Source: Candidatus Niyogibacteria bacterium
GTDB lineage: Bacteria; Patescibacteriota; Minisyncoccia; HO2-45-28
DNA length: 64,000 nucleotides
Direction: 5' to 3'
NCBI GenBank assembly: GCA_016432485.1
Contig: CP066691.1
Coordinates: 516,709-580,708, forward strand
In this document: positions 5,024 through 55,932 of the stretch, piece by piece
Position numbering within the stretch: the stretch's first letter is position 1
How the letters are laid out: every line of letters starts with the position of its first letter
Translations under genes and position numbers: made by a program
The notes under the pieces: generated by a model
What the model was told of the DNA's origin: nothing
Seen by the model: the letters and a program-made list of their open reading frames with translations, nothing else
Database searches by the model: none

Positions 5024-5117
5024 CGACGCTCCTTTTATGAAAAAACTCTAATTATAGAATACCTTCAAATAAAACAGCACGCAATGCGGGCTGTTTTATT
5101 TGGAGACGCAAAAACAA

Positions 5118-5327
5118 TCAATCAAACCTGTTTTCGTCGGAATGTTTTTTTATCTCGGCGACAAGCATCGCGATATGAGCATCATCGTCATCTTTCATTT
5201 TCTGCCACATTGCGGTGCAGGAATCGCATCCCTCTGCGTTTTTCAAATACTCTTTTTCATATCGCCAGACGGCGTCGTTTTTTTCCGAAAGCGCGTGAAC
5301 TAAATCGTGATTATGGTTTTTTAACAT
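5118..5327 (-). CDS. hypothetical small protein (69 aa)
   Basis: Balanced composition; the overlapping plus-strand ORF is Arg-rich. No SD sequence seen. Confidence 0.3.
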   Translation of the reverse strand: MLKNHNHDLVHALSEKNDAVWRYEKEYLKNAEGCDSCTAMWQKMKDDDDAHIAMLVAEIKKHSDENRFD

Positions 5328-5373
5328 GCCAAAAATTAAGGAATTAATTTATTAACGACTATAATTTTTGAGC

Positions 5374-38691: not shown

Positions 38692-38699
38692 AATTTATT

Positions 38700-40536: not shown

Positions 40537-40540
40537 ATTA

Positions 40541-40924
40541 TTATTCTCCGAAAAACGTCCTAAATTGCGGACTCTTATTGTAAAAGTATAGAAACACCAC
40601 CATTCCGGTATAAGCCGGCAGAAAAGGTATGAATCCCGAAGCCCCGCTTAGGTGAAAGGCCCACGGTTTTTTAAGTTCGCGGGCTTGTGTCCACGCGAAT
40701 ATAGTAAACCAAGCTATACCGTCTATTATAAAACCGACAAGGGGTACTTGGCTAATTAAGTCGCAAAACGAAGCAAAACCAATCATCATTCCGAACTCGG
40801 ACTTGCTTACCATGGGACCGGCCACGGCGGCCGCTTTTTGCGTCGCCAGGCCTTCATTTTTACGGGATTCCTGAAGTTTCAAGTTTCGTTCGCCTTCCTC
40901 GGTTGTAATATTTTCATCAGCCAT
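40541..40924 (-). CDS. small membrane protein
   Basis: 127 aa with 2-3 hydrophobic helices. Confidence 0.4.
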   Translation of the reverse strand: MADENITTEEGERNLKLQESRKNEGLATQKAAAVAGPMVSKSEFGMMIGFASFCDLISQVPLVGFIIDGIAWFTIFAWTQARELKKPWAFHLSGASGFIPFLPAYTGMVVFLYFYNKSPQFRTFFGE

Positions 40925-40932
40925 GTTTTAAA

Positions 40933-42750
40933 TTATTTTTCCTGCGCTATTCCCTGCTTCGCCTTTTTAATCGCTAATAATTGCTGGGGGTCGGAAGTTA
41001 TAATTTGGTCTTCGGTGTAAGACGATATTATTTTGATGGCCACATGTTTGAGGCCGGCGAAAAACAACCCTTCGCCGATATCGGACTCCAGTATCAGGAA
41101 TTTTTCTTCGTCGGTCAGGTTGAAAGTTTTTTGGAGAAGATCAATGGTCGCGGGCGACTGTTTTAAAAGAATCTGGATTGAAGAGTTTGTAATGATGGGC
41201 ACGCCGTAAGGGGAGCGCAAAAAATCGCCCACGTCTTGAGTAATCGTCGCCACTCCCAAAAAATATTTTCTCGCGCGCTTGGCTATGCCGAATAAGAATG
41301 AGGCGCCCTGTTCTTCTTTCATAATCCACCAGGCTTCGTCTATGACCAGAATTCTCTTTTTTAAATTTTTTCGGACAGCGTTCCAGATATGGTGGGTTAT
41401 CAAATACATTGCCACCGGACGCAGTTCGTCCTCCATGTCTCTTACCGAAAAAACCACCAGCTTTTTATTTATATCAACATTTGTAGGCTGGTTGATGAAG
41501 CCGGCCCAAGTGCCCTGGGTGTATTTGCGCATGCGCTGGGCCAATCCTTCGCCGCCTTCCATATTGGCTAAAATCAATTCAAGATCCGAAAGTATCGGCG
41601 GAATTTTTGAAGAAAAATCAGATTCCGGAGTAATGTCGCGCGAAGCGTAAGTTTCGGTGATGGCCCGGTCTAAAATGGAATCCTCTTCCGGCGTAAGTCC
41701 GCCGAGCATTATGCGGAAAAGTCCGACTAAGTTTATGATGTTAGACCTTAAAATATCCGAGGGGTCTTCGTCTTCGCGGGGTTTGGGCAGGTCAAAAGGA
41801 TTAATATGATGCTGGGAAGAAAGAGAGATGTTGAAATATCGGCCGTCAACGGCCTCCGACAGAAATTCATATTCGCGTTCGGGGTCAATCACTATGACAT
41901 CGGTGTCAAACATTAAAGAGCGAAGTATTTCAAGTTTCGTGGCATAACTTTTTCCCGCTCCGGCTTTGGCGAAAATGACCGAATTGTAGTTTTCAAGCGA
42001 GAATCTGTCAAAAAGAACCAGGCTGTTATTATGGCGATTTACGCCGTAAAGAATGCCTCGGTTGGAAGTGAGGTCAAATGAAACAAAAGGGAAAAGACTT
42101 GATATCGGCGAGGAATTAAGTTTGTTGTTGACTCCCAGAATGTCCCGTCCCAGGGGGAAAACAGTCAGGAGGCCGTCATCCTGCTGGAAAAGAGCGGGTT
42201 TGGCGTAAACCAGACGGGATTCAAGCATTGACCTTATTTCCGTTTCGTCCCGGTTGAGTTCTTCCAGAGTGTCGGCATAGATTGTCATATAAAGGCCGAA
42301 AGAAAAAAGTTTTTCCTGCGCCTGTTGCAGTTTGTCGCGCAGTTCCTCCAGGTTTTGATAAGCGGCATCCAGCATCGGGTCCCTAACCAGGCCTTTTTCT
42401 TCGCGCATGTGGATTTGAGACTGGACTTCGGCGACCTTTTTCTGGAGCTGGCGTAAAACTCCGGCCGTATCCATCGGATGGATGTAAATAGATATGTCAA
42501 AAACCTTGTCGAGATTTATGATTGAGCTGAACCAGTTCACGGCCAGATATTTGGGATAGGAGAAAATAAAAATGGTGCGGGCTATTTTTTCCCCGATTTT
42601 TACGTAATTTGAATTTACTTCCAAAGCTGACGGCGCGATGATGTCTTTCAATTCCAAAACCGCGGCCTCGTAAATCTGTTCGGGCTGAATCGCGATTATC
42701 TCGTCGTTTGCCCCCACCTCCTTCTTTTTGAATAAGTCTCCTAAAGCCAT
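40933..42750 (-). CDS. VirB4/TrbE/CagE-family type IV secretion ATPase (C-terminal ATPase part)
   Basis: Walker A FAKAGAGKSYATK, the VirB4-type Walker B LVIDEAWWIM and downstream motifs; 605 aa. Confidence 0.7.
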   Translation of the reverse strand: MALGDLFKKKEVGANDEIIAIQPEQIYEAAVLELKDIIAPSALEVNSNYVKIGEKIARTIFIFSYPKYLAVNWFSSIINLDKVFDISIYIHPMDTAGVLRQLQKKVAEVQSQIHMREEKGLVRDPMLDAAYQNLEELRDKLQQAQEKLFSFGLYMTIYADTLEELNRDETEIRSMLESRLVYAKPALFQQDDGLLTVFPLGRDILGVNNKLNSSPISSLFPFVSFDLTSNRGILYGVNRHNNSLVLFDRFSLENYNSVIFAKAGAGKSYATKLEILRSLMFDTDVIVIDPEREYEFLSEAVDGRYFNISLSSQHHINPFDLPKPREDEDPSDILRSNIINLVGLFRIMLGGLTPEEDSILDRAITETYASRDITPESDFSSKIPPILSDLELILANMEGGEGLAQRMRKYTQGTWAGFINQPTNVDINKKLVVFSVRDMEDELRPVAMYLITHHIWNAVRKNLKKRILVIDEAWWIMKEEQGASFLFGIAKRARKYFLGVATITQDVGDFLRSPYGVPIITNSSIQILLKQSPATIDLLQKTFNLTDEEKFLILESDIGEGLFFAGLKHVAIKIISSYTEDQIITSDPQQLLAIKKAKQGIAQEK

Positions 42751-42761
42751 AATGTTAAAGT

Positions 42762-43415
42762 TTAAGTTCTAATTTGCGGCGCGTGTCCTTTTTCCAATTC
42801 CCCCGGGTTGAATAATCCGTAGAAGAGTTCAACCGCCTCTTCGGTGTTTAGGGGCGCGGTTCGCGTTCCGGTTGAAGCAATGGCTCCCGAAACCGTTTCG
42901 GCTCTTTGCCAGAGTTGATTTTTATGTTCCTCAAATTTTTCATCGCTTAGTTGTTTGTCTTCTTTTTTTACGCCGAAAAGCCCTTTGAATATCCCGCCCA
43001 GTCCGTTTTTTTTGCCGATCTCAATTAAGGGAGGGGCAAAAGAGACGACGATGTAGAAATTTTTGGTCACGATTTTTGTGGTTTCAACAAAAGTTCTGAT
43101 GAATTCAATGTATTCGCGTGTCTGTATTTTCAATAATTCATTAGTCTGGTCGCGTTCTGTTTCGCGCAGAGTTTCAAGGTAGGGTTCAATATTGAGCCTG
43201 CGTGACTGGATCACGATTTGCACCGAGAAATCCAGCGCGTTTAAAAAGTTTTGATATTGCGCGGTAATGGCCTCTTGCTCCTCGTTTGACCTTAAGGCGA
43301 AATTCAAAGACGAAGCCATCAAAACCATATGTAGGCTTTTATCTTCGGTGATTATTATGCCGTCGCGTATTTCTCTTATCGGCACGAATTCCTGCGCTGA
43401 TAGTGGTTTTGCCAT
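42762..43415 (-). CDS. probable N-terminal domain of VirB4 encoded as a separate ORF
   Basis: 217 aa ending 11 nt before the ATPase ORF. Combined length of 822 aa equals a typical VirB4. Confidence 0.4.
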   Translation of the reverse strand: MAKPLSAQEFVPIREIRDGIIITEDKSLHMVLMASSLNFALRSNEEQEAITAQYQNFLNALDFSVQIVIQSRRLNIEPYLETLRETERDQTNELLKIQTREYIEFIRTFVETTKIVTKNFYIVVSFAPPLIEIGKKNGLGGIFKGLFGVKKEDKQLSDEKFEEHKNQLWQRAETVSGAIASTGTRTAPLNTEEAVELFYGLFNPGELEKGHAPQIRT

Positions 43416-43820
43416 TTACTTAATTTTCTCTTTAACATCTAAAGACCAAGCCAGGTCCTTTAATTTGCTTTCGGTGGTTTTAGGTAAAACGAATTCTTGT
43501 TTGGGAGCCGAAATTTTTTGGGCTTTGGGTTTTTTGGTCTCGCTTCTTTTCCAGATATAAAGTTTTGATTTGGTGTAATATGATACGGCGTTGGCCATTA
43601 CGTTTATGAAAGGCTGATTATGCACTTTATAAAATGCCAAAGCCAAAGCCAGCCCGGCGACCGGCAAACCCAGAAGCACTGTCAGAAAAAAGGGCAGAAA
43701 AACATATATTATGAAAACCGTAGCGACGCCCCCCAGAAGATAGATAAACTGCTTCAGGGTCAGCGGCCCGAAAATTTTGTCTTCAACCTCTATGAATTGC
43801 GGAACGCTAAATTGTCTCAT
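43416..43820 (-). CDS. VirB3/PrgI-like small 2-TM protein
   Basis: 134 aa with two TM helices, located immediately upstream of VirB4, which is the conserved VirB3 position. Confidence 0.4.
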   Translation of the reverse strand: MRQFSVPQFIEVEDKIFGPLTLKQFIYLLGGVATVFIIYVFLPFFLTVLLGLPVAGLALALAFYKVHNQPFINVMANAVSYYTKSKLYIWKRSETKKPKAQKISAPKQEFVLPKTTESKLKDLAWSLDVKEKIK

Positions 43821-43822
43821 AT

Positions 43823-44452
43823 TTATTTTGGGGGCTCTTTATAAGGGTCGGCTTTATCCGGATAACGATTTTCTTTTCGGGCTTGCTCTGTTTCTTCGGA
43901 CAATGATTCCCCGGGCATAAAAACTTTTTCTTCAAGCCTGGTTTCAAACGGCGAAGTTTTTAAACTTTTAAACTCTTCTGTCCCCTTTATTTCACGATTC
44001 GGAGTTTGCGTCTCGGTTTCAACTGATTTTTCGGGAGGAACGGCAGGAACATGGGAAATAGGAGCAACAGGAGAAACGGGTGGGACAAAAGGAGTGGGCG
44101 CGGTCGGCGTTTCGGAAATAACTTCCTCACCAACCGCGTGTATTTTTTTCAGAGATTCTTTGACTTTTGAAAAAATCTGCGCGTTTATCTCCTGCGCGAT
44201 TTTTTTAGTCGTTTCCGGATCGGTTCCGAGACGTCCGGTTAAATTAGAAATGAAATCGCGCGGATGCGTGACTCCAAGCATCAGAAGTCCGGTTTCATCG
44301 TCCAGTTCTCCCATTTTGTCAATTTGGAGGCCGTATTTTTTGCCAATCGCCTGAACAATATCAGCTGTATCTATGCTGGTGATGGCATTTTGCAGTTCTT
44401 TCGGCAGGCCTTTATATTTTTCAAAAATTTGTTCGTTAGTTAGTTGAGACAT
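43823..44452 (-). CDS. hypothetical soluble protein with Pro-rich linker
   Basis: 209 aa; the stop overlaps the next gene's start; contains PTAPTPFVPPVSPVAP. Confidence 0.4.
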   Translation of the reverse strand: MSQLTNEQIFEKYKGLPKELQNAITSIDTADIVQAIGKKYGLQIDKMGELDDETGLLMLGVTHPRDFISNLTGRLGTDPETTKKIAQEINAQIFSKVKESLKKIHAVGEEVISETPTAPTPFVPPVSPVAPISHVPAVPPEKSVETETQTPNREIKGTEEFKSLKTSPFETRLEEKVFMPGESLSEETEQARKENRYPDKADPYKEPPK

Positions 44453-46140
44453 TATTTATTCTTTTTTTCTTTATCTGATTCGGCCTTTTGCTTAGACATT
44501 TTTTCTACTTCCTCCAGACTTTCGTTCATGGCATTTATTTTTTCCCCGACAGTAGCCTTGGGATTATTTAAAATTGCCGCTCTTTTTGCCTTCCTGCTTC
44601 TTTCGTCCAAAACTTTTTCAATTGCTTCTCGTCGCGCTCTATTCAGGAATTGCAGCCTAGAGGTCTTTAAGTTTTTAAGGGTGTCTGTGCTGTAAGAAGA
44701 GTATTGTTGCGTGTAGCGTTTTATTTCGGGTTGATCGAGCGTTGATGCTTTAGTTATGCCGCGCCCGACAAATGGCATGGAGCGCACAAACTTCGCGGCG
44801 CGCGTTTCACTTTCAGCAATAGTTTTGGCGATAGGCGCGGTGTATCTTTTGCCGACCGTTCCGGCATATCCGACAGCCCACTTGCGGGCGGATTTTACTC
44901 CTTTTTCGGCCCATTCGGCGGCTTTGCCGCCCATTTGTTTGGCCACAAGAACGCTTGCCATAAGCATTATGATTAAAAGAAGGTAGTAAGCAATCATTGA
45001 AAAACTGGTAACAAAGGCCGTGCTTTCGGCTTGCCCGCCTTTTATTCCCGTCAGCAGGTCTTTGGCTTTGCCCGAAGCAATCATTTCAACCGTAACGCCA
45101 AAAAGGAAGAAAAACGCCGGCGCGAAAAATGCCTGTTTGAGCAAAGTTGACCACCATTGTCTGGCATAAGAATCCAATCCCGGGATTGCGTAGAATAGAA
45201 ACGCGACGGGAGAAAGAATCATTAAAAACCATAAAATTACCACCCGGATTAAAAGCGATAGTCCGGCAAAAGCTAGCGCAAATATGGCGACAAGAATAAA
45301 AACCGTTACGCCGAGCATTGCCACTGTCATCTGAATCAGAGTATTAGGCAGGTCTTTTTGCGCGGTTTCAAGCTTTTTTCGCAGGCTTTCTTCCTCACTG
45401 AGGAGTTTTTTTATTCCGGGATCTTCCGGAGCGCTCTCGCCGACAATAAGCTTTTCCGTCACGCTCGCCAATTGTTCCTGTATTTTCGATATGTCGCTGA
45501 ATCCGAACTTGGCGCTTTTAAACATCTGATTCGGATTTAATCCGGCAAGAAATTTGACCGAGAGGGACGCCGAACTTTTTCCCTGCGCCCCCCCCGGCAG
45601 AAAAAATCCGGTCATAAGATTTGAAGAAAAGACAACGTATTGCGTAAGCAAAAACGAAAAGTTGATGAAGAGGGCGGCTATTATCAGGCGGGGCAGAAGT
45701 TTTTTGACTCCGAACGTATCTACCTGCAGGATGGTCGCGATGGCGATGGTTAAAAGTATAAAAATGAAAAAGAGGTTCGCGCTGTCGCGGGCTATGGTCC
45801 ACCCCTTGTAGATGGCGTCAAGATTATAGGTTGCCGGATCAAGCGTGAATGCAGTTACCAGGTCAAAGATAATTCCGAAAACCTGAAACATTGCTGATAC
45901 GAACATGAGTGCCGCGAATACCATCCAGCTTACTGCGGTAAGAATTGGGCAGCCGAGAAACCAGCCGACCCCTGACAAATCAGCACAAGATGCTTTTGAA
46001 AGTTCGGCGGCAACGCCGGTGTTTTGAGCGTAAGCGGCTGCGGGCTGCAAATACAGAATTGAGATTATCAGCATTAAAATCGCTACCGTTATTAAAGCGG
46101 CCGATTTCTTACTTTTTAATTTCTTTTTTAAAAAATTCAT
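44452..46140 (-). CDS. polytopic membrane protein, VirB6/TrbL-like
   Basis: Signal peptide then at least 8 TM helices over ~400 aa and a ~130-aa charged C-terminal tail; sits in the T4SS context. Confidence 0.35.
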   Translation of the reverse strand: MNFLKKKLKSKKSAALITVAILMLIISILYLQPAAAYAQNTGVAAELSKASCADLSGVGWFLGCPILTAVSWMVFAALMFVSAMFQVFGIIFDLVTAFTLDPATYNLDAIYKGWTIARDSANLFFIFILLTIAIATILQVDTFGVKKLLPRLIIAALFINFSFLLTQYVVFSSNLMTGFFLPGGAQGKSSASLSVKFLAGLNPNQMFKSAKFGFSDISKIQEQLASVTEKLIVGESAPEDPGIKKLLSEEESLRKKLETAQKDLPNTLIQMTVAMLGVTVFILVAIFALAFAGLSLLIRVVILWFLMILSPVAFLFYAIPGLDSYARQWWSTLLKQAFFAPAFFFLFGVTVEMIASGKAKDLLTGIKGGQAESTAFVTSFSMIAYYLLLIIMLMASVLVAKQMGGKAAEWAEKGVKSARKWAVGYAGTVGKRYTAPIAKTIAESETRAAKFVRSMPFVGRGITKASTLDQPEIKRYTQQYSSYSTDTLKNLKTSRLQFLNRARREAIEKVLDERSRKAKRAAILNNPKATVGEKINAMNESLEEVEKMSKQKAESDKEKKNK

Positions 46141-46163
46141 TTATGGCGAAATTTTTATGATTT

Positions 46164-47507
46164 TTATGACCCCGGACACGCCTGAAGTTCTGAAAGAAGC
46201 GAATCAAGTTTTTCCTGGAATTCGTCTGCTTGTTGGTTGGCCGCGTCTATATCGTCTTGCGATGCCGATTGGTTTGCCGAATCAACCGCCTGCGTCCCGA
46301 CATCGCTTAATTCCTGGGGACTGTTTGTCGTTTCCGCTTTTACTCGCGAGTTTTCGTAGTCGCTAAGCGCGGCGCGAGCCGATTTAAGTTCGCTTTTTAT
46401 GTCATCAAGGTTTTTTTGCGCTTCGGCAATTTCTTCGTTTCGCGGTTGCGTCCCGCAGCTATGTAATTTGTTAAGCGTCTGAATTGTTTGAGTCAGTGTA
46501 TTTGATGACCGCTCTTTTGCTTTTATGTAGCCGTTCGTTAGGTTTATGGCATCAGTTAAGAGGGGGGTTATTCCCTTTCGGCTGTTATTGAGAAGTCCGG
46601 AATAGTCCGGATTGGATGACCCGCCCGAAGACAGTATGCCGTCTCTGCCGGTGCCGCTTAGGGCGCTATTTAAAAGTTGTACTACGACCGTTGAGATAAG
46701 TTCGTTTATTTCATCCGACACTGCTGTTTTGATAGCTGTGTATTCGTCCGGAAGTTCAAGTTTTTTAGCCACATAACTTCCCGGCGTTACGGTTTCTTCC
46801 CTTAAGCAGGGTTTGTCAGTGCCCGCGGCTTCGCTAAAAGCGATTTCTTTGGAATACTCCGCGCATCTTTTCCAGCTGAGAAATCCTCCGGACGCTTGAG
46901 ATTCAAGTTTCAGGCCGGTTACCTTTTCAAGTATGGCCCGCTGCGTCTGGTCCATTTGGATTAGAATGGAGCCGAAAGCGTTGTTGGCCACATTAGCGGT
47001 GGTAATTGAAATAAAGCCGGTCCAGCCGTAGGTTTCAAAGGTGTTATAGAGCGCGTCCACATTGGCAATAAACCTATCAAGAGTACAGACTGCTTGTTGT
47101 CTTTGAGCCGAGACCAAACCCAGAACAATGTCTATTCTAAAAGGACTGCAGATATTCGGCGCGCCATTAGCGATAAGGCCATCAACAAAAATACCAAAGG
47201 CTTCGTTTCCGGCTTTTCTTAAATATCCTTCCCAGTCGGTTACGAAAAGAGGTTTGCCGTTAAAGCCGTTTCGTATCCAGCTTTTTATGTTGTCGGACAT
47301 AGTCCTGATTAGAGCGACTCCTATAGCGTTGACCAACGGATCAAGGACATAATCTTTGACCGCCTCTGATCCAGCCGGCAGCTCTATTGTAAAAAATGTT
47401 ACAGCCTCGGCTTTTGGCGGCGAAAAAGGAAATAGTGTAGCGAGCAGAATCGCGACAATAACCGGGACAATATATTTTTGAAATCGGACGCTTCGCTTAA
47501 AAATCAT
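46164..47507 (-). CDS. secreted protein with C-terminal coiled coil
   Basis: N-terminal signal/TM and a C-terminal ~120 aa with heptad-like Q/E/K-rich sequence. Confidence 0.4.
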   Translation of the reverse strand: MIFKRSVRFQKYIVPVIVAILLATLFPFSPPKAEAVTFFTIELPAGSEAVKDYVLDPLVNAIGVALIRTMSDNIKSWIRNGFNGKPLFVTDWEGYLRKAGNEAFGIFVDGLIANGAPNICSPFRIDIVLGLVSAQRQQAVCTLDRFIANVDALYNTFETYGWTGFISITTANVANNAFGSILIQMDQTQRAILEKVTGLKLESQASGGFLSWKRCAEYSKEIAFSEAAGTDKPCLREETVTPGSYVAKKLELPDEYTAIKTAVSDEINELISTVVVQLLNSALSGTGRDGILSSGGSSNPDYSGLLNNSRKGITPLLTDAINLTNGYIKAKERSSNTLTQTIQTLNKLHSCGTQPRNEEIAEAQKNLDDIKSELKSARAALSDYENSRVKAETTNSPQELSDVGTQAVDSANQSASQDDIDAANQQADEFQEKLDSLLSELQACPGS

Positions 47508-48532
47508 TGCAGAGCGATTATTAAATTAATTAACGCGAAGCCGGCTTCACTCGGCTTAAAGACCAGATTGTCTTTTTGAATTAAAACGCCCGCCGTCAAA
47601 AGCGCGTTTTTGACATTTTTAGATTCATTCAGGTATTGCTGCACGGCGCCAAGTCCGGTTACTGGGTCGGACATAAATTGTGAAAACGCTTTATTTATTT
47701 TCGCGAGATTGTTTAAGGCGTTTAAATATTTTAAATGCGCGGAAATGTAAGTTTGCGGCACCATCAGTTTTGATATTTCAAGTGCCGCGTCTTCGTATGC
47801 CCGGGCGTAAATTTTAAATTCGTCAAACGAATTGAAATTGTCTTCGGAGTTTGACTGCTGGATTAAACGCGTCAGCAAATCCAGTTCATTTTCTTTTATC
47901 TGCCCGCTGTATTTGTCGGATATTTCCGCTAAGCCATTTATATAAGCTTTGGCGTTTTCCGGAGAGGCGCTTGTTACGCGCGCGTTATTGAGCGAGAAAT
48001 CATTTTTGAAAACCGCGGCGGGATTGTCGTTTAAAAGAGCGTCCACGACTTGACTCGCGGTTTCTTTGGGGTCAAGGCCGGCATTTCTTTGCTGGATGTA
48101 CGAGGCAAAAAGGTCTCGGGTTATTCTTTGGGTCGGGTTATAGGGTTCGCCGGCAGGCGCGCCATCGGACATTTGATTTTCGTCATTACTGGACGCGCTT
48201 GACGAATTCAATAAATCATCCGGGCCTTTTTTCAAAGGGTCGCGCCCCAATTTTATTTCTTCTCCGTCGGGCGCTTGGTCGCCGTCGGTGTCAGGATTTA
48301 GCGGGTCAGTACCCCAAAGTTTTTCTTCCCAGTCCTTTAAGCCGTCACCGTCAGAATCCGGAGATTCAATGGCCGTTTTTTCTCCGGAAATCGGCGTTAT
48401 ATTTACTCCGGAAGCCATTTTTTTGACATCGGGTTTTTTGGAAATCCAAAAAGCGCCCGCAGCTATGGCTAGCGCGAGAATTATTGCGAATATTGTTCTT
48501 TTATTTCCTAAAAATGCCAAAATCGCAGGCAA
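47504..48532 (-). CDS. membrane-anchored protein with calcium-binding-like DxDxDG repeats (TTG start)
   Basis: TM helix, then DSDGDGLKDWEE...DPLNPDTDGDQAPDGEE, which resembles thrombospondin type 3 repeats. TATAAT and AAGGCG lie upstream. Confidence 0.4.
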   Translation of the reverse strand: MPAILAFLGNKRTIFAIILALAIAAGAFWISKKPDVKKMASGVNITPISGEKTAIESPDSDGDGLKDWEEKLWGTDPLNPDTDGDQAPDGEEIKLGRDPLKKGPDDLLNSSSASSNDENQMSDGAPAGEPYNPTQRITRDLFASYIQQRNAGLDPKETASQVVDALLNDNPAAVFKNDFSLNNARVTSASPENAKAYINGLAEISDKYSGQIKENELDLLTRLIQQSNSEDNFNSFDEFKIYARAYEDAALEISKLMVPQTYISAHLKYLNALNNLAKINKAFSQFMSDPVTGLGAVQQYLNESKNVKNALLTAGVLIQKDNLVFKPSEAGFALINLIIALQ

Positions 48533-48581
48533 TACGCCTTACAATAATTATAGCATTTTACTTTTTCTATTGATTTTTATT

Positions 48582-49445
48582 TTATTTTCTGCTGTGGATA
48601 TCTGTTCTTTTTGTCAGACATGCCCAATTTTTAAGGGAAAGTTCCTCTGCGCGCGCATTCTTGGCTATTTTGCATTTTTTGAAACTTGAGACCTGAAACT
48701 TGAAATTTTTTAAGTTATTTTTTAAAAGCTTGCGCGGGTGGCGGAATCCGGTTTTAACCAGTTTAAAAAATGCTTTTTGGCCGATTTTATGCTGACGAAA
48801 AAAATCAACCCCCCGTTTTTTAAATATAACTACAGCCGAATCAACTTTCGGCTGGGGCCAAAAATTGCCTTTTTTAACCAAAAAGGCAATTTTTGGCTTT
48901 ACGAAAACTTGCACCGAAATAGCCAGCAAGTTCATTTTAAATCCGAACTCGGTTCGGACCCGAACCGAGTTCGGATTTAAACTTGAACATATCCGTTTTG
49001 CTACCTCTTTTTGAAGCATTATTACCAACAACTTTGTCTTAAGCAGACCACGAGATACTTGGGGCAAGATGAGGCGCAGAAGCTGGCCGGTAAGATAATA
49101 AGGGATATTGGCTACAACCTTGTTTATTCCGATTCCGAACTCGGTTCGGATTCGGACGCCGAACCGAGTTCGGAATCGGACAATGTCGCGGATGTCAGCG
49201 TTGAGCAAAACCAGCCGTCCGGCATCTATAAAAACCCTGAATTTAGAAGTCAAAATGTTGAAAAGCTTAATATCTTTTTCAACTGCGATTACCTTCGCGC
49301 CCGTTTTTAAAAGTTCTTCGGTCAAAATTCCCTTACCGGGCCCGATTTCCAAAATAGTATCCTTTGGCCCGACTTCGGCCGCAAGGACCATTTTGCGGGT
49401 GATATTTTTTGAAGTTAGAAAGTTTTGTCCGAGTTTTGTCGGCAT
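48582..49445 (-). CDS. ksgA: 16S rRNA (adenine1518/1519-N6)-dimethyltransferase KsgA/RsmA carrying three in-frame palindromic insertions
   Basis: LGQNFL start, SAM motif EIGPGKGILT, NIPYY and PKVDSAVV. Three palindromic DNA elements add extra residues within its loops. Confidence 0.8.
   Translation of the reverse strand: MPTKLGQNFLTSKNITRKMVLAAEVGPKDTILEIGPGKGILTEELLKTGAKVIAVEKDIKLFNILTSKFRVFIDAGRLVLLNADIRDIVRFRTRFGVRIRTEFGIGINKVVANIPYYLTGQLLRLILPQVSRGLLKTKLLVIMLQKEVAKRICSSLNPNSVRVRTEFGFKMNLLAISVQVFVKPKIAFLVKKGNFWPQPKVDSAVVIFKKRGVDFFRQHKIGQKAFFKLVKTGFRHPRKLLKNNLKNFKFQVSSFKKCKIAKNARAEELSLKNWACLTKRTDIHSRK
48857..48897. repeat. perfect 18-19-bp hairpin inside ksgA
   Basis: GCCAAAAATTGCCTTTTTT-AACC-AAAAAGGCAATTTTTGGC; it encodes LVKKGNFW, inserted in the conserved PKVDSAVV neighbourhood. 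Confidence 0.85.
48940..48977. repeat. TCCGAAC-family palindromic element (38 nt) inside ksgA
   Basis: AATCCGAACTCGGTTCGGACCCGAACCGAGTTCGGATT; it encodes SVRVRTEFGF. Confidence 0.9.
49129..49178. repeat. TCCGAAC-family palindromic element (50 nt) inside ksgA
   Basis: CCGATTCCGAACTCGGTTCGG-ATTCGGACG-CCGAACCGAGTTCGGAATCGG; it encodes RFRTRFGVRIRTEFGIGI. Confidence 0.9.
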
Positions 49446-49446
49446 A

Positions 49447-51396
49447 TTATATTTCTATGATTTTTTCTTCGTCTGCGTTCTCCATCAGTTCTGGTGGAAT
49501 ATCCGAAAGAAAACGGGAGGGCATATTGGCTTGTTTTTCACCGAATATTGTTCTGAAAAAAGCCATTGAAAGAAAAACTTTTTTTCGGGCGCGGGTTAAG
49601 GCGACGTAAAAAAGCCGGCGTTCTTCCTCCAGCCTTAATTTTTCGTCTTCGCTTGCGATGGTAGTGTGGGGAAAAAGTCCGTCTTCAAGCCCGGATATGA
49701 AAACATAATCAAATTCAAGCCCTTTGGCCGCGTGAACCGTAGTCAGAGGAATGCCGTCTTTTCTGCTGCCGATGGCATCCTGGTCGGACATTAAACTTGC
49801 CTCTTCCAGCATATTCATCAGGCCGTCCGGCGGCTTTATTTTATCAAATCTGACGGCAAGACTTACCAATTCTTTGATATTTGCCAAGCGCATAACGCCT
49901 TCTTCGGTTCCGGCAGATTCAAACAGGTCAAGATACCCGCTTTCTTTGAGCGTCGCGGCAACCGCGCGCGACGCCGGAAGATTTTCAGCGGCGGACTTTA
50001 TTTTATTAAGCGTTTTTTCAAAAATTGATATTTTTTCAGCTTCTCCCGATTTCAATCCGACTGCCGCGAAGTATTTGGCAAGGGTTACTTTGCCTATGCC
50101 GCGCGCGGGCTGGTTGATTATTCTTTTTTTGCTCAAAAGATCATTTGAGTTGAGGGAGGCGCGGATATAGGCCAGAATATCTTTTATTTCTTTGCGGTTG
50201 TAAAACTTTACGCCGACCACGTAATGCGGCAGTGTGTATTCCAAAAATTTTTCCTCCAGAACTCTTGATTGGGAGTTGGTGCGGAAAAGCACGGCTATTT
50301 CTTCGGGTTTGGCTCCGCCGGCAATGAGACTTTGGGACTCGGCCGCTACGAAATACGCTTCGTCGTTTTCCGTTTCCGCGGCGTATATTTCCAGTTTTTC
50401 GCCGCCCTTTTTTCTGGTAAAAAGATTTTTTGGCAGACGTTCTTTATTTTTGGCTATCACGGCGTTGGCCGCCTCCAGTATCTGTTCGGTTGAACGGTAA
50501 TTTTCTTCAAGCGTTACGATTTTGGTTTCGGGATAGGTTGCCTCAAATTCCAGGATGTTTCTGAAATCAGCTCCGCGGAAGCCGTATATTGATTGGTCTA
50601 GGTCGCCGACCACGCAGATATTCTTGTGAAGGGCGGCAAGTTGCTGGCTTAAGCGGCTCTGGACATGGTCGGTGTCTTGATATTCGTCTATCAAAATGTA
50701 TTGCCAGAGGGATTGGTATTTGGCAAGAATTTCCGGATGCGATGAAAAAAGAACAACAGTTTTCACCAAAAGATCGTCAAAATCCAGACTGTTTGAAGAT
50801 TTCAATTTTTGCTCGTACAAGCTCCAGATTGAGGCCAATTTTTTTGAAAAATAATTTTCGTCTTCGGACAAAAAATCGTCGGCGTTTGCCAGATCGCATT
50901 TTTTCCCGGAGATTATCTTTCTGATTTTTGATGGCTGGAACTGTTTGGGGTCTATTTCCAGCTCTTTAATTGATTCTTTGATTAAAGATAAAGCATCTTC
51001 TTCATCTATGATTGAAAAATTCTTTTTAAAGCCAAGCGCCGCGGCTTCGCGGGGCGCGGCCTTGCGTCCCGCTTCACGTCTTAAAATCCAGGCGCCAAGA
51101 GAGTGAAAGGTGCCGACCCAAGGAGAAGCGTTTGAATCGTGCGGGCGCGGCGGCTGAACATTTTGAACAAGTTTTGCGATGCGTTCTTTCATTTCGTTTG
51201 CGGCTTTGTTGGTGAATGTTATTGCCAGAATTTTTTCCGGTCGGACGCCGGTCGAGATCAGATGAGATACGCGATGAGTCAGAACTTTGGTTTTGCCCGA
51301 CCCCGCGCCGGCCACAACCAAAATAGGGCCGTTTATATGCAAAACCGCATCAATTTGAGCCGTATTCAGGCCGGAGAGATGACTTGGGTTTGACAT
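49447..51396 (-). CDS. ATP-dependent DNA helicase UvrD/PcrA family
   Basis: Walker A GAGSGKT and superfamily 1 helicase motifs I-VI; 649 aa. Confidence 0.9.
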   Translation of the reverse strand: MSNPSHLSGLNTAQIDAVLHINGPILVVAGAGSGKTKVLTHRVSHLISTGVRPEKILAITFTNKAANEMKERIAKLVQNVQPPRPHDSNASPWVGTFHSLGAWILRREAGRKAAPREAAALGFKKNFSIIDEEDALSLIKESIKELEIDPKQFQPSKIRKIISGKKCDLANADDFLSEDENYFSKKLASIWSLYEQKLKSSNSLDFDDLLVKTVVLFSSHPEILAKYQSLWQYILIDEYQDTDHVQSRLSQQLAALHKNICVVGDLDQSIYGFRGADFRNILEFEATYPETKIVTLEENYRSTEQILEAANAVIAKNKERLPKNLFTRKKGGEKLEIYAAETENDEAYFVAAESQSLIAGGAKPEEIAVLFRTNSQSRVLEEKFLEYTLPHYVVGVKFYNRKEIKDILAYIRASLNSNDLLSKKRIINQPARGIGKVTLAKYFAAVGLKSGEAEKISIFEKTLNKIKSAAENLPASRAVAATLKESGYLDLFESAGTEEGVMRLANIKELVSLAVRFDKIKPPDGLMNMLEEASLMSDQDAIGSRKDGIPLTTVHAAKGLEFDYVFISGLEDGLFPHTTIASEDEKLRLEEERRLFYVALTRARKKVFLSMAFFRTIFGEKQANMPSRFLSDIPPELMENADEEKIIEI

Positions 51397-51693
51397 TATA
51401 GAGCGATTTTAGCATTTTTTATGGTTGTGGACAGGGTAGTAGGTCTGCGCGGCGCGACTGCTGCCCTGTGGATAAATATGTTCGCCAGGTTGACTTTCGG
51501 TTGCCGCGGGTATATTATTAAGGATGTTCCGGTATGCGTTACCGGATTTGTTGTTGAAAGGCCGTCTATCTGTTTTTCCCCTTAATTTAAGCCTATTTTA
51601 GAGCCTAATCAAAGGAAAACCTCTTTTAAAATCCCTTCGGGACTCAAGGGCTTTTTAGCCGTTTTAGCCGTCTCGGCTCTATTTTTTACCGGC

Positions 51694-52650
51694 TTGGACA
51701 GGGCAGATGCCGGTTTTTTTGATGTTTTGAAAAGTATTTTCGGCGCCGGAGACTCTGCCGGACAGACCGCGGCGTTAAATTCCCAGAATATGCCGCTTCT
51801 TATGGCTCCGAATAATACTGACCCTTTGGCCGGAACCGGCGGCGGGGATATTACCATAGTTCAAAACAGCGCCCTACTTTCTGTTTCTGGGCCGTTGGGT
51901 AGTTTGGCTGATGTAGAGGTTGAGTCGCGAAAAAGCGATCAAATTTCCATTTATATCGTCCGCGAGGGAGATAATCTTTCAAGTATTGCTAAAATGTTTG
52001 GCGTTTCAGTCAATACCATTCGGTGGGCCAACGATCTGACAACTTCAACCGTCATAAAGCCCGGGCAGACCTTAATAGTGTTGCCTATAAATAGCATTCA
52101 GCACACGGTGGCTAAAGGTGAAACGCTTAAAGGGATTGTTAAAAAATACGGCGGCGACCTCAATGAGACCCTGGCTTTTAACGAATGGCCGGCCGGTTAT
52201 GAGCCGGAAGTCGGGATGATTGTTATTGTTCCGGACGGGGAAGGCGAGCCATTGGTAAATTACGGCAGCAAGACAGTTCGGGGCACGGGCGGCCCGGTTT
52301 ATGCCGGATATTATATCCGTCCGATAAACGGCGGAAGAATATCCCAGGGTTTGCACGGGCTTAATGCCAAGGATTTCGCGACTTACTGTGGCGCCCCGAT
52401 TTTTGCCTCCGCCCGGGGAACGGTTATCATTGCGCGTTCGGGCGGTTGGTTCAGCGGTTACGGTTCATACGCGGTTATCGCGCATCCGAACGGGACCCAG
52501 ACGCTCTATTCCCATATGAGCAGGATTGCCGTAACACCCGGATGGAATGTGGTTCAGGGACAGGTGATCGGCTATGTGGGTTCTACCGGCAATTCCACGG
52601 GATGCCATGTGCATCTTGAAATCCGGGGAGCCGCGTTTCCCAATATCTAA
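51694..52650 (+). CDS. LysM-domain M23 metallopeptidase (TTG start; possible N-terminal extension)
   Basis: Two LysM repeats and an M23 HxH motif (CHVHLEIR). An in-frame upstream signal-peptide-like segment has no ATG, GTG or TTG. Confidence 0.7.
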   Translation: MDRADAGFFDVLKSIFGAGDSAGQTAALNSQNMPLLMAPNNTDPLAGTGGGDITIVQNSALLSVSGPLGSLADVEVESRKSDQISIYIVREGDNLSSIAKMFGVSVNTIRWANDLTTSTVIKPGQTLIVLPINSIQHTVAKGETLKGIVKKYGGDLNETLAFNEWPAGYEPEVGMIVIVPDGEGEPLVNYGSKTVRGTGGPVYAGYYIRPINGGRISQGLHGLNAKDFATYCGAPIFASARGTVIIARSGGWFSGYGSYAVIAHPNGTQTLYSHMSRIAVTPGWNVVQGQVIGYVGSTGNSTGCHVHLEIRGAAFPNI

Positions 52651-52656
52651 CCCATT

Positions 52657-54174
52657 TTAGAAATTGCTTTTTGGCCTATATTGGAGGGCTTCCAGAATAT
52701 GGCTCTGTTTTATTTCGTCCTCGTTTTCAAGGTCGGCTATGGTCCGGCTTATTTTTATCACCCGATGATAAGCTCTTGGCGATAAATCCATTTGTTTAGC
52801 CGAAATATTAAGGATGTTTCTGGCATCGGGCGATAGGGGCGCGAAATTTTCAAGGTTGCGCACCCCCAGTTCGCTATTGGAAACTAGGCCCAGCTTTTTG
52901 AATCTGCGCTTCTGGCGGTCGCGCGCGGCGATTACTTTTTTACGTATATCAGCCGATGTTTCCAGCGCGTCTTTTTTTGAAAGTTCTTCATGGTCAATGT
53001 TAGAAACCTCCATCCAGAGATCAATACGGTCGGCTATGGGTCCGGAAACCTTTCTTTGATAGCGGAAAAGCGAAGAGGGGGTGCAAAGACACATTTTGTT
53101 TTTGGAGCCGAGATTTCCGCAGGGGCACGGGTTCATTGCCGCGACCAGCATGAATCTGGCAGGAAACCTAACAGTGCCCCTGGAGCGGGCAACGGTTATT
53201 ATTCCGTCTTCAAGCGGTTGGCGAAGCGATTCAATGACTCGGCGTTCAAACTCGGGAAACTCGTCGCAAAACAGCACTCCGCGATGGGCCAGCGTTATTT
53301 CGCCCGGTCTTGGCCACACGCCCCCGCCGACCATAGCGACATAAGACGCGGTATGATGGGGAGACCTGAAGGGCCTGTATCTGGCAAAAGAGCCGTCAAG
53401 AGAGCCGGCAATGCTGTGGATGGCGGTCACTTCAAGCGCCTCTTCTTTTGAAAGGGGAGGAAGAATTGACGGCAGAGCTTTAGCCAGAAGGGTCTTGCCG
53501 GTTCCGGGCGGACCCGACATTAAAATATTATGGTTGCCGGAGGCGGCAATCATTAAGGCCCGTTTTGCGGTTTCTTGGCCCCGTATGTCCGATAGGTCGT
53601 GGCTCGCCGCCTCTGTTTGCGGCGAAAGTTTTGTTTTGGGCAGGATTTCAAGCGCGGTTTCTCCTTTAAGATGCAGAAGAACTTGATTCAGATTTTCGAC
53701 TTCCCGCGCGGATATGTTTTCAATTAAGGCCGCCTCTTCTCCGTTGCCTTTGGGCACATATATTTCTTTAAAGCCCGCTAAAGACGCTTTTTGCGCAAGC
53801 GCCAGAACTCCTTTAATCGGACGCAATGTTCCGTCTAAAGCCAATTCGCCCAAAAATATTTTATCTTTTGTTTCAAATTCGGCTTGATGTGAAGCCAGAA
53901 TATATCCAAGAGCGATGGCCAAATCAAAAGCCGACCCCTCTTTTTTAAGGTCAGCCGGCGCGAGTGACACGATCACTTTTTGGTTTTGTTTGTGCGGGGG
54001 CTTGAGCCCGATATTTTTAATGGCGTAAGATATTCTTTCTTTGGCTTCATCCACGGCTTTATCCGCAAGCCCGACAATGGTAAAAGACCGCAAACCCTTT
54101 GAATAATCAACTTCAACGTCAATTATTTCGCCGTCAAGTCCCATTATTTCGGCCGCGTGCAATTTTACCGACAT
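52657..54174 (-). CDS. YifB/ComM family Mg-chelatase-like ATPase
   Basis: Lon-like N-terminal domain, AAA+ Walker A GPPGTGKT, and a C-terminal Mg-chelatase domain. Confidence 0.88.
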   Translation of the reverse strand: MSVKLHAAEIMGLDGEIIDVEVDYSKGLRSFTIVGLADKAVDEAKERISYAIKNIGLKPPHKQNQKVIVSLAPADLKKEGSAFDLAIALGYILASHQAEFETKDKIFLGELALDGTLRPIKGVLALAQKASLAGFKEIYVPKGNGEEAALIENISAREVENLNQVLLHLKGETALEILPKTKLSPQTEAASHDLSDIRGQETAKRALMIAASGNHNILMSGPPGTGKTLLAKALPSILPPLSKEEALEVTAIHSIAGSLDGSFARYRPFRSPHHTASYVAMVGGGVWPRPGEITLAHRGVLFCDEFPEFERRVIESLRQPLEDGIITVARSRGTVRFPARFMLVAAMNPCPCGNLGSKNKMCLCTPSSLFRYQRKVSGPIADRIDLWMEVSNIDHEELSKKDALETSADIRKKVIAARDRQKRRFKKLGLVSNSELGVRNLENFAPLSPDARNILNISAKQMDLSPRAYHRVIKISRTIADLENEDEIKQSHILEALQYRPKSNF

Positions 54175-54197
54175 AATGGCTAGATTCTAGCGCATCT

Positions 54198-54243
54198 TTA
54201 ATAAAAAGAAAATCCCACCCTCTCCCCGAAAGGAGAAGGTGGG
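54198..54243 (-). terminator. intrinsic terminator of the small GC-rich gene
   Basis: CCCACCTTCTCC-TTTCGG-GGAGAGGGTGGG followed by ATTTTCTTTTTATT on the minus strand. Confidence 0.7.
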
Positions 54244-54260
54244 CGGCTTGCCCGTGTTGT

Positions 54261-54467
54261 TCAACGCTTCTTGAGGTCCTCCAGGGTCTTGACGATTTTG
54301 TCGGTGGCCTCTTTGATCTCGTCGATGAAGGGTTGGAACACAAGGGCCATCATGATGATGAAGAGGCCGAAGAACGCCACCGCCAGGAAAACCCCGATTG
54401 AGTTGCTGGCGACCGACGCGAAAAAGGTGGAGACAGTGAGACAGACAGCGGCCAGAGGTAGCCTCAT
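54261..54467 (-). CDS. small hydrophobic membrane protein (68 aa) in a GC-rich islet
   Basis: SD AAAAGGAG 7 nt from ATG; perfect consensus promoter upstream and terminator downstream; local GC about 55%. Confidence 0.5.
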   Translation of the reverse strand: MRLPLAAVCLTVSTFFASVASNSIGVFLAVAFFGLFIIMMALVFQPFIDEIKEATDKIVKTLEDLKKR

Positions 54468-54556
54468 GTGAATTCTCCTTTTCTGTTGGGGGTTTCAGAA
54501 GCGCCTGCTTCATAGTCCTGAAGCAGGAAAACACCTGTTTTTAACTTACTCCCTTC

Positions 54557-54585
54557 ATTATATCAAATAAGAATATGCTTGTCAA
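54557..54585 (-). promoter_or_regulatory. perfect-consensus sigma70 promoter TTGACA-N17-TATAAT
   Basis: The minus strand reads TTGACAagcatattcttatttgaTATAAT. The 5' UTR contains the hairpin CCTGCTTCA-GGACTAT-GAAGCAGG. Confidence 0.65.
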
Positions 54586-54618
54586 TACCTTCGTAATGGT
54601 TCAACAGTGTGTAAAATT

Positions 54619-54981
54619 CTATTTCCCGGCGTGCTCCACGCAGGTTTTTGCCGCGGGGTTGGCTTCAAGGCGCCTTGGGTCAATAGGTTTTTGGTCGATC
54701 GCGCAAAGGCCGTAGGTCCCCTTTTCAATACGCTCAAGCGCAGAATTTATTTCATTGAGTCTTGTCTCCAGTTCAACTTCGCGCGCGGCGCGATTTCCCA
54801 TTTCTTCAAACAAGTCGGCCATTTCGCTTTGCTCTGACGCCTGGGTATTTAAATCCGGCGGAGTCGGCTGCCAATCCTTGGGGTTGTCCGGCGATATTTT
54901 GGCAATAGTCTGGAGCTCGCCTTCCACACGCAGGCGTTCTTCGTCAAGTTTTTTTCTGAAATAATTTAGGTCTAAAGACAT
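54619..54981 (-). CDS. DksA/TraR-family protein (possibly zinc-less variant)
   Basis: Coiled-coil N-terminus and a C-terminal region with only two Cys (GLCAIDQKPID...KTCVEH). Confidence 0.45.
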   Translation of the reverse strand: MSLDLNYFRKKLDEERLRVEGELQTIAKISPDNPKDWQPTPPDLNTQASEQSEMADLFEEMGNRAAREVELETRLNEINSALERIEKGTYGLCAIDQKPIDPRRLEANPAAKTCVEHAGK

Positions 54982-55030
54982 GTTTGCATATTAGCATTAT
55001 TTTTTATCTGCCCAAACTGTCCGACTCCAA

Positions 55031-55066
55031 GTCCGAACCGAGTTCGGATCCGAACTCGGTTCGGAC
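55031..55066. repeat. TCCGAAC-family perfect 36-nt palindrome (intergenic)
   Basis: GTCCGAACCGAGTTCGGATCCGAACTCGGTTCGGAC, abutting the stop codon of the gene at 55066-55932. Confidence 0.9.
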
Positions 55067-55932
55067 TATTGCGGGGGCAGGGTGCTCATTATTCTGATAA
55101 TCGCTCCGACGGCTTGTTCTGATTGGGCGATTATGAGAAATTGTTTATTGAATATGGAATATCCGATTATGGGTTTTCCGGTGCGGTTTCGCAGAAAACG
55201 AGCGTCGTTATTTTCCACGACCGAATCCAGAAAGACGTTTTCTCCGCGATCGTACGACAAATCCGGTTTAAGAAGTTTCGCGAAGTCCGCGGTCATTTTT
55301 TCTTCCCATTGAAGCAGGCCGGCGAAAGCCGAAGAATACAAATTGATTTCAATTATAAAAACGGGTTCGTTCCCCAAAGCAGTGTCTATGATTCCGAAAG
55401 TTGAACGCGGCCCCATTCCGTTTTCAAATAAAGGCGGCGGCGTAATTTCGACCAGATTAAAAATATCTTTCGCGTCCAAAAATTCATTTTGGCTCTGGTC
55501 AAAAGTTTTCACATAAATAAATTCTCGCGGCCGAAGCTGGGAGTCCAGAAATTTCTGCCATAAATCCAAAAATGTTTTTTGGTTCCGCGTTTCCAGCTCT
55601 ATGGCAACTTCGCGGTCCGCGCGGATTATGGGCGGCGGGGATTCTGCCGCCGTCCCCGCGCTGGGCCCCTGAATTGTTCTTTTGAGCCAAAATGCCCCGA
55701 AAGCCGCGACAATTATTATAAGCAAAGCGATAAAAACATAAATGGCCGGCCTTATCTTTGACATTGGAGATTCAAATGCGGCCGCGGTTTTTCTTTCCTG
55801 CTTCGCGCTGACGAGTTCACCCAGGGAGAATTTTTTTCCGCTGGCATATTCCCGGACGTCCGAAATCATGGTTCTTATGCCGGGCTTTTTAGGCTCGTTT
55901 TTTTCAGGAACATTTTGACTGCCGCCGTTCAT
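55066..55932 (-). CDS. hypothetical single-pass membrane protein
   Basis: 288 aa with a TM helix near residue 70; no recognised family. Confidence 0.4.
   Translation of the reverse strand: MNGGSQNVPEKNEPKKPGIRTMISDVREYASGKKFSLGELVSAKQERKTAAAFESPMSKIRPAIYVFIALLIIIVAAFGAFWLKRTIQGPSAGTAAESPPPIIRADREVAIELETRNQKTFLDLWQKFLDSQLRPREFIYVKTFDQSQNEFLDAKDIFNLVEITPPPLFENGMGPRSTFGIIDTALGNEPVFIIEINLYSSAFAGLLQWEEKMTADFAKLLKPDLSYDRGENVFLDSVVENNDARFLRNRTGKPIIGYSIFNKQFLIIAQSEQAVGAIIRIMSTLPPQ

Follow-up and report, generated by a model that had tools for sequence, protein, structure and literature searches.

Short hairpin repeats of the repetitive extragenic palindromic (REP) type are usually thought to lie outside genes, and palindromic inserts carried in frame within coding sequences are best known from Rickettsia. 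REP monomers and dimers have also been described inside genes, where they encode 20–30 amino acids, sometimes twice in one gene, and where the hosts notably include uvrA, uvrB, uvrD and dnaE (Di Nocera et al. 2013, PMC3733652). The Rickettsia palindromic elements (RPEs) RPE-4 and RPE-6 were classed in the same work as CGTC-type REPs. Here, a 64-kb stretch of a Candidatus Niyogibacteria genome (contig CP066691.1, positions 516,709 to 580,708; referred to as the window) was found to carry palindromes in frame within ksgA (rsmA). Two of them, at positions called site 1 and site 2, are probably genome-specific elements similar to REPs or to REP doublets forming hairpins (REPINs), tolerated in loops of KsgA. 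They would have been spread, replaced or homogenised by a putative Y1 enzyme resembling the REP-associated tyrosine transposases (RAYTs).

Intragenic REPs of the GTAG and CGTC types, whose hosts are often DNA-repair and RNA-related genes, are the closest described elements (PMC3733652). Like the elements of the window and its relatives, they consist of short palindromic units (20–40 nt), often in inverted dimers. They lie both at the 3' ends of genes and in frame within genes, at times twice per gene, and some of their families are tied to Y1 transposases flanked by the same repeat. The differences are that the host here belongs to Patescibacteria (candidate phyla radiation, CPR), that the units are only 15–17 nt long with 6-bp stems, and that their conserved end is NGTC, not strictly CGTC or GTAG. 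In addition, two of the three loci in the window are intragenic, and the same two ksgA loops hold different families across lineages. REPINs and RAYTs were reportedly described by Bertels and Rainey in 2011 and by Nunvar and colleagues in 2010. There, too, two inverted units give one long hairpin in a genome-specific family, and the Y1/HUH gene of the relatives, flanked by the repeat, follows the 'REPtron' arrangement. Unlike REPINs of ~70–110 nt, the dimers here span 38–53 nt.

RPEs are likewise in-frame palindromic repeats at fold- and function-compatible positions of housekeeping genes in a small, host-dependent genome (Ogata et al. 2000). An earlier, sequence-only reading of this DNA had called the ksgA inserts RPE-like. 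The inserts do lie in frame, at permissive positions, in a functional housekeeping gene. However, RPEs are ~100–150 bp long and encode a conserved peptide of 30–50 amino acids, whereas the present elements are REP dimers of 38–53 nt encoding 12–18; by inspection alone the sequences are unrelated. The comparison is better made with the intragenic REPs. The double-hairpin elements and GC clusters of fungal mitochondria are also small and mobile, with two adjacent hairpins that sometimes lie in coding regions, but they are organellar, have no associated Y1 transposase and are unrelated in sequence to those described here. A literature search returned no paper on palindromic or REP elements in CPR/Patescibacteria coding sequence. 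Intragenic REPs are already known, with RPEs as the classical in-frame case. The novelty lies in the phylum of the host, in how small the unit is, in intragenic copies predominating across the region sampled, in different families taking up the same ksgA loops, and in a transposase gene that always has its own in-frame hairpin.

Positions of the features are collected in Table 1. The 287-residue product of ksgA, a 16S rRNA dimethyltransferase (KsgA/RsmA), matches Pfam RrnaAD with E=1e-40 and scores 171.5 bits against TIGR00755, for which the cutoff is 171. It aligns over its full length, end to end, with Bacillus subtilis KsgA (6ifs). The GxGxG motif for S-adenosylmethionine (SAM) binding and the catalytic NIPYY motif are intact, as the sequence-only reading had stated, and EIGPGKG and NIPYY are invariant across the alignment. 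The closest KsgA proteins share 55–62% identity and, where labelled, come from Patescibacteria; the next, slightly more distant, come from Candidatus Niyogibacteria and other Parcubacteria. From 26 sequences, AlphaFold2 produced a model with a mean predicted local distance difference test score (pLDDT) of 84.8.

Table 1. Positions of features in the window and in contigs of relatives (L numbers).
Feature	Sequence	Positions	Strand	Remarks
ksgA/rsmA coding sequence, 287 aa	window	48582-49445	minus	holds all three palindromes; Pfam RrnaAD, TIGR00755
Site-1 double hairpin, REPIN-like dimer	window	49128-49180	minus	TCCGATTCCGAAC-TCG-GTTCGG...CCGAAC-CGA-GTTCGGAATCGGA; 22-nt arms, 9-nt loop; translated VRFRTRFGVRIRTEFGIG, residues 89-106
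Site-2 double hairpin	window	48936-48981	minus	coding strand TTTAAATCCGAAC-TCG-GTTCGG-GT-CCGAAC-CGA-GTTCGGATTTAAA; 22-nt arms, 2-nt loop; translated SLNPNSVRVRTEFGFK, residues 155-170
Coding palindrome without insertion (41 nt)	window	48857-48897	minus	18-nt arms, 5-nt loop; encodes PKIAFLVKKGNFW, core beta-strand and turn ahead of PKVDS motif
Third family copy, double hairpin	window	55030-55067		19-nt arms, no loop; units in opposite order
24-nt perfect palindrome TGATTCGGACGGCCGTCCGAATCA	window	59441-59464	plus	low-complexity acidic insert of trigger-factor gene (HDSDGRPNQ)
28-nt perfect palindrome	window	13289-13316		uvrB; 14-nt arms, no loop; no length change against solved UvrB structures
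44-nt perfect palindrome	window	10906-10949		MurE-like ligase gene; 18-nt arms; encodes ENPAAILEEIAAGF in conserved motif; no indel against PDB homologues
Y1 flanking hairpins	L003	4141-4163 and 4866-4888
Y1 flanking hairpins	L020	8124-8148 and 8855-8879
Y1 flanking hairpins	L092	9958-9982 and 10636-10664
Y1 flanking hairpins	L093	9945-9975 and 10656-10686

All three palindromes previously noted in ksgA are present, perfect and in frame within the intact gene, but two had been drawn too short, as 48940-48977 and 49129-49178, and extend to the limits given in Table 1. A count of perfect palindromes across the window, requiring arms of at least 12 nt and allowing loops of up to 12 nt, gave 11, compared to 0.15 expected from first-order Markov simulations. 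Folding of the coding strand gave -25.7 kcal/mol for the 41-nt palindrome, -35.3 for site 2 and -41.9 for site 1, with z-scores of -6 to -9 (-9.0 at site 2 and -8.8 at site 1). An Rfam scan of the entire window matched only a tRNA and thus no rRNA, and the hairpins belong to no described RNA family.

The palindromes at sites 1 and 2 belong to one family, which bears out the earlier description of a repeated in-frame element; the 41-nt palindrome lies outside this family and is not an insertion. Each of the two loci consists of two 15-nt units, CCGAAC-TCG-GTTCGG and CCGAAC-CGA-GTTCGG, in inverted orientation, and can fold either as two small hairpins or as one long hairpin. The third copy, otherwise intergenic, overlaps the stop codon of the open reading frame (ORF) at 55066-55932 (minus strand), whose 288-residue product gave no Pfam or NCBIfam match; this copy folds at -31.9 kcal/mol. 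Family units measure 15–17 nt, with a stem of 6–7 bp and a 3-nt loop, and have the stem-loop form of REPs. All three loci are inverted dimers with perfect arms of 19–22 nt, the pairing seen in REPINs. The core TCCGAACNNNGTTCGGA has eight matches in the window at up to two mismatches, compared to 0.30 expected and with none of 100 shuffles reaching the observed count; six of the eight are family units with zero or one mismatch. The bases preceding the units are CGTC at site 1, GGTC at site 2 and AGTC at the third locus, such that NGTC is constant and the full CGTC/GTAG tag is not. Outside ksgA, the palindrome in the trigger-factor gene has the 10-mer GATTCGGACG in common with the middle of the site-1 element and, from that 10-mer alone, is possibly related to the family.

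The exact double unit CCGAACYSRGTTCGG-N(0-12)-CCGAACYSRGTTCGG gave a single, chance-like Mycobacterium hit among 185,579 GTDB species genomes (one genome per species) and zero matches in JGI metagenome contigs. The CCGAAC family appears to be private to this lineage. The sequence-only reading had reported a family that it did not recognise, and this was fair; the core resembles hairpins that flank Y1 genes, as described below.

All six reading frames of the dimer core are free of stop codons, and two of them are used in ksgA (PNSVR-VRTEFG and RFRTRFG-VRIRTEFG). More generally, all of the ~20 intragenic hairpins examined in the window and its relatives keep the frame and have no stop in the frame used. 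These observations bear on whether the inserts reach the protein at all. They could be skipped by ribosomal bypass, as with the 'byp' elements of a yeast mitochondrion or with T4 gene 60, or removed from the mRNA, and known bypass elements do feature strong hairpins within coding sequence. However, the constraint on frame and stop codons would be needless if the hairpins were skipped, and we consider this explanation very doubtful.

Comparison of the window KsgA with 120 homologues located the added residues. Site 1, before the NIPYY motif, has 21 residues compared to the usual 13, an addition of ~8. Site 2, after the QKEVAKRI helix, has 18 compared to six in the common Patescibacteria form, an addition of ~12. 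Relative to B. subtilis KsgA the excess is nine and eight residues, respectively. Thus, of the three inserts of 8–18 residues claimed earlier, two were recovered, and the 41-nt palindrome is without any change in length. The peptides encoded across the two inserts are RFRTRFGVRIRTEFG and NPNSVRVRTEFG, and the inserts are rich in arginine (VRFRTRFGVRIRTEFG). In the AlphaFold2 model these sites are the two poorly defined internal stretches: the 10-residue blocks across residues 91–110 near site 1 average a pLDDT of 54 and 70, and those across 151–170 near site 2 average 69 and 51, with residues 160–167 below 50. The structural model proposed earlier as a check on loop placement agrees with loops at both sites, and the inserts are predicted to occupy permissive surface loops. 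In contrast, the 41-nt palindrome lies in a core beta-strand with a pLDDT above 90.

Orthologues of ksgA at 55–62% identity have single or double hairpins at these two sites as well, and the sequence is specific to each lineage. In L008, both sites hold double hairpins of the form GGTCAGAAC-YSR-GTTCTGACC, with arms of 19 and 18 nt and the peptides GQNRVLT and GKNSVLT, and L006 carries the same type of element with 13-nt arms. Single units (monomers) occupy both sites in L011, TGACAAGAGC-NNN-GCTCTTGTCA dimers both sites in L005, and GCCAAGAGC-TTA-GCTCTTGGC both sites in L003. Site 2 is empty in the orthologous proteins P0003, P0009, P0011, P0015 and P0016. Monomer, dimer and empty states are all found among the relatives. 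In each genome, the elements at sites 1 and 2 match one another (GGTCAGAAC-YSR-GTTCTGACC in L006 and L008, CAAGAGC-NNN-GCTCTTG in L003 and L005). An alignment of orthologues had been suggested earlier as a check for lineage-specific insertions; sites 1 and 2, which differ or are empty, behave in this way, but the 41-nt palindrome is inherited within the clade.

The stem CGAAC/GTTCG of the window and the stem AGAAC/GTTCT of L006 and L008 are one base pair apart, and each of the four ksgA units has this pair altered on both arms. Because the same change is found in all four, independent point mutations are not the source, and copying from a common source or gene conversion is indicated. The comparison points to copying or concerted evolution of the ksgA stems, not to passive decay. 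The first unit at site 2 is read in an identical frame in the window (PNSVR) and in L008 (QNSVL), which suggests that the site-2 element is a shared ancestral insertion whose sequence was later replaced.

In the case of L008 and L010, which come from different samples, 1.3 kb of sequence agrees throughout but for a patch of ~100 nt around site 2 (alignment columns 509–611). One has a 50-nt dimer there and the other has none, and substitutions are clustered on both flanks. A recent insertion was considered and rejected, as the patch with its flanking substitutions was replaced as a whole. The difference resembles a recombination patch or a strain-chimeric assembly. Since both the dimer and the empty state are found, both states circulate.

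Related contigs provide a candidate for the enzyme. All four examined (L003, L020, L092 and L093) contain one Pfam Y1_Tnp (PF01797) gene, with a hairpin of similar core on either side (Table 1) and a third copy in frame inside. The gene lies 5 kb from ksgA in L003 (4165-4833) and directly after ksgA in L020. The L003 protein has the Y1/HUH fold signature, with the HUH motif HFH (LMPNHFHLIL) and YIHLNP. Its gene is flanked by TGTCAAACA-N5-TGTTTGACA, and the internal third copy encodes VKHRMFD. The same hairpin also occurs in frame near the C-terminal end of L003 ksgA, where it encodes MSNTGCLT, and its peptide signature (VKHxMFD, MSNIGCL, MSDIGCL) is found at site 1 or at a C-terminal third site in many other orthologues. 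In the window, a 10-nt direct repeat, TGAAACTTGA, stands at 48680-48689 and 48694-48703, where many orthologues have the C-terminal MSNIGCL-type palindrome. Between the L092 hairpin, GTCGAAC...GTTCGAC, and the window's GTCCGAAC...GTTCGGAC, only one base pair of the stem is different, and the units of L008, L003 and the window all match GTC-N-RAAC...GTTY-N-GAC. REP_Tyr_transpos (NF047646) is the only NCBIfam family listed for each of the four Y1 proteins. These proteins resemble RAYTs without qualifying as members of that family.

In the relatives' Y1 genes the internal hairpin is at one fixed protein position, upstream of the HUH motif. Residue pairings across it were counted in 122 aligned sequences (120 database homologues and the L003 and L020 proteins). 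Lysine was paired with phenylalanine in 70 and with leucine in four, glutamate with phenylalanine in 11 and with leucine in none, and glutamine with leucine in 17 and with phenylalanine in seven. These pairings agree with those predicted by base complementarity. Because the residue covariation follows base pairing, the internal hairpin is apparently a structured element that is conserved in the Y1 gene. The family, flanked and interrupted by such hairpins, is very large and unstudied, with more than 3,600 homologues; those listed with a taxon name belong to Patescibacteria lineages (Niyogibacteria, Giovannonibacteria, Berkelbacteria, Tagabacteria and Minisyncoccia). These features could be taken further, to a hairpin/Y1 system that is lineage-wide and vertically inherited in Patescibacteria. 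Such a system would actively exchange its hairpins, which would then be more than passengers, at fixed landing sites in essential genes, the ksgA loops foremost. Its Y1 gene would always hold an in-frame hairpin whose pairing is maintained through covariation of codons (K-F, E-F, Q-L). We regard this extension as unlikely. If true, it would represent a domesticated, site-reusing hairpin replacement that remodels protein loops and mRNA structure, not the ordinary spread of a selfish REP.

The mechanism that we consider probable for the window would proceed as follows. Two 15-nt units, each with a 6-bp stem (CCGAAC/GTTCGG) and a 3-nt loop, stand inverted and jointly fold into a 22-bp hairpin, and the elements lie in frame in two permissive KsgA loops, where they would be translated as 8–12 extra residues. 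A Y1 (HUH) enzyme would recognise the hairpin in single-stranded DNA and copy or replace the element, as proposed for REPs and RAYTs. Single-stranded hairpin recognition is established for HUH transposases of the IS200/IS605 type. Because the genome is ~90–95% coding, there is little extragenic room for hairpin elements. Survival within coding sequence may therefore follow from scarce intergenic space, from units free of stop codons and from selection that purges all but loop insertions. Reuse of the same loops across lineages could reflect targeting, in which existing hairpins attract the current family or are overwritten by it, or purifying selection, if only these loops tolerate inserts.

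Several results weigh against this mechanism. The Y1 proteins score 36.0–40.3 bits against NF047646, for which the cutoff is 80; unlike RAYTs, they fall short of it, and their genes also hold the conserved in-frame hairpin. A tblastn search of the window with the L003 transposase found no Y1 gene, unlike the situation in REPIN/RAYT genomes, and in this genome the CCGAAC family would be linked to a transposase by analogy only. Copies of a genuine REP family usually number in the tens to hundreds, and only three loci (six units) of the CCGAAC family were seen in the 64 kb. Two of these three lie inside a single reading frame of 864 bp, which departs from the extragenic location of REPs, and the same sites are occupied across lineages; this clustering could reflect selection for a hairpin or loop function. 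The insert borders show neither a target-site signature nor a clean insertion boundary: no target-site duplication was found at them, and L008 has only a one-sided 9-nt tandem repeat, ACCAAAATG. Finally, the L008/L010 patch is better explained by old alleles having recombined than by a recent insertion.

The 41-nt palindrome presents a different case. It is not an insertion, because it involves no length change relative to any homologue, with zero indels against B. subtilis KsgA or any orthologue, and its residues are conserved core residues (PKIAFLVKKGNFW) within strand 182–190 of the model. Its sequence has nothing in common with the CCGAAC family. In five close relatives the same codons form a near-palindrome with 13–17 of 18 Watson-Crick pairs. 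Two pairs are altered on both sides, A-T to G-C in L003 (CCA/TGG to CCG/CGG) and G-C to U.G in L011, and every stem change confined to one side gives a U.G wobble on the sense strand. Over the six sequences, 93.5% of the cells are paired, compared to ~70% when the partner is slid by one column. Covariation is weak, as 23 of 500 column shuffles reach the observed value with six sequences. Distant relatives have a median of six of 18 pairs. Part of the pairing comes from conserved residues with reverse-complement codons (KIAF against KGNF, PK against FW). On these comparisons, the palindrome is best read as a hairpin inherited at the level of the clade within the core of the coding sequence, perhaps selected as an mRNA stem or perhaps a quasi-palindrome perfected repeatedly by template switching during replication.

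Template switching (fold-back copying) could also have formed the other palindromes in place, with no mobile element or transposase. Inverted repeats that are imperfect become perfect in this way and may grow longer, and a perfect hairpin is possible in one step. Consistent with this, the 41-nt palindrome is near-palindromic in the relatives and perfect in the window, the arm pairs seen are all 100% complementary, and three window palindromes (this one and those in the MurE-like and uvrB genes) lie in conserved coding sequence without a change in length. For the perfect 18-bp stem in the conserved motif of the MurE-like ligase, template switching may be one candidate. However, it leaves unexplained why one 15-nt unit is found at three separate loci, why the two ksgA sites match within a genome, and why the L003 ksgA hairpin is identical to the hairpin flanking the transposase. 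As a general account it is improbable; it may well explain the non-insertional palindromes alongside the REP-like elements at sites 1 and 2.

A wider survey covered 80 more distant ksgA loci (831 kb, 31–44% identity) obtained from a metagenome scan with a KsgA profile, which yielded distant relatives only and none from the close clade. Perfect palindromes with arms of at least 12 nt occurred at 0.30 per 10 kb of coding sequence. ksgA itself had seven, all in frame, of which four occupied site 1, two a loop upstream and one the linker between the domains; this is ~5x the density in other coding sequence. Some ksgA palindromes, in L051 and L054, belong to families repeated on the same contig, and recurring inverted pairs of small hairpins were seen in L052, L054 and L059. 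The window itself has eight such palindromes in long ORFs, ~4x the rate in distant relatives, two of them in doubtful ORFs.

This concentration in ksgA is relevant to the strongest of the rivals, in which the hairpins are kept for ksgA itself and repetition elsewhere is secondary. They could act as mRNA stems (in stability, processing, entry of RNase III or RNase J/Y, or ribosome pausing) or as arginine-rich loops that bind rRNA. The stems are very stable (-26 to -42 kcal/mol), two of them with 22-bp arms, and the same loops are filled in many lineages, every copy being a perfect palindrome. The conserved pairing of the 41-nt stem in six genomes and the arginine-rich inserts of the window also agree with this idea. 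On the other hand, the inserts are dispensable, because several orthologues and one near-identical allele are without them. The peptide is not conserved between lineages, homologous units even differ in reading frame, and the covariation at the 41-nt stem is weak. The element also occurs outside ksgA, at the third locus, and related hairpins flank transposase genes. A role in ksgA is rather unlikely as the main explanation, although no other rival does better. A related candidate, mimicry of 16S helix 45 for KsgA autoregulation, was rejected by inspection, since the two adenines would lie in the stem and not in a GGAA loop and the unit is also found outside ksgA.

The sequence-only reading had raised an assembly artefact as a possible refutation. 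The palindromes would then be fold-back chimeras of assembly or amplification, and assemblers can indeed break or go astray at perfect palindromes. Run SRR12113425, assembled independently by Logan, yielded a 33.7-kb contig, SRR12113425_24853, of which the 16,478 bases compared are 100% identical to window 38582-55059, all of ksgA included. Orthologues from at least five further samples, put together with three assemblers, have comparable in-frame hairpins, and the ORF and fold are preserved. Given the identical assembly and these orthologues, an artefact behind the ksgA palindromes is very unlikely, to the point that we give it almost no weight. The Logan contig terminates at 55059, within the palindrome of the third locus, and such hairpins may systematically fragment assemblies of these genomes.

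Together, the REP-like elements at sites 1 and 2 extend in-frame hairpin behaviour to the candidate phyla radiation, whose genomes are tiny and nearly all coding, with scant space outside genes. Two defined loops of one conserved enzyme, found in monomer, dimer and empty states, represent a concrete and testable system. The elements bear on how repeats persist in streamlined genomes, on the origin of new protein-loop sequence, and on the reasons why hairpin sites disrupt assemblies and gene calls in these organisms.

Some further palindromes and genes were noted. Those at 1338-1377 (17-nt arms) and 5066-5102 (13-nt arms) lie in ORFs 1212-1634 (minus strand) and 4805-5347 (plus strand), whose translations do not look genuine; Rfam found an RNA gene at neither palindrome. 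The stretch 1181-1780 lies between two minus-strand genes. Downstream of ksgA, window 38582-47507 (L002:7553-16478) contains genes with matches to PrgI, TraC-like and TraG/DUF87 P-loop ATPase families, which suggests a type IV secretion or conjugation-like apparatus. In L092, a unique 37-nt perfect palindrome with 15-nt arms (L092:6531-6567) is in frame in dnaE and encodes SGGVVYTSQLRLK.

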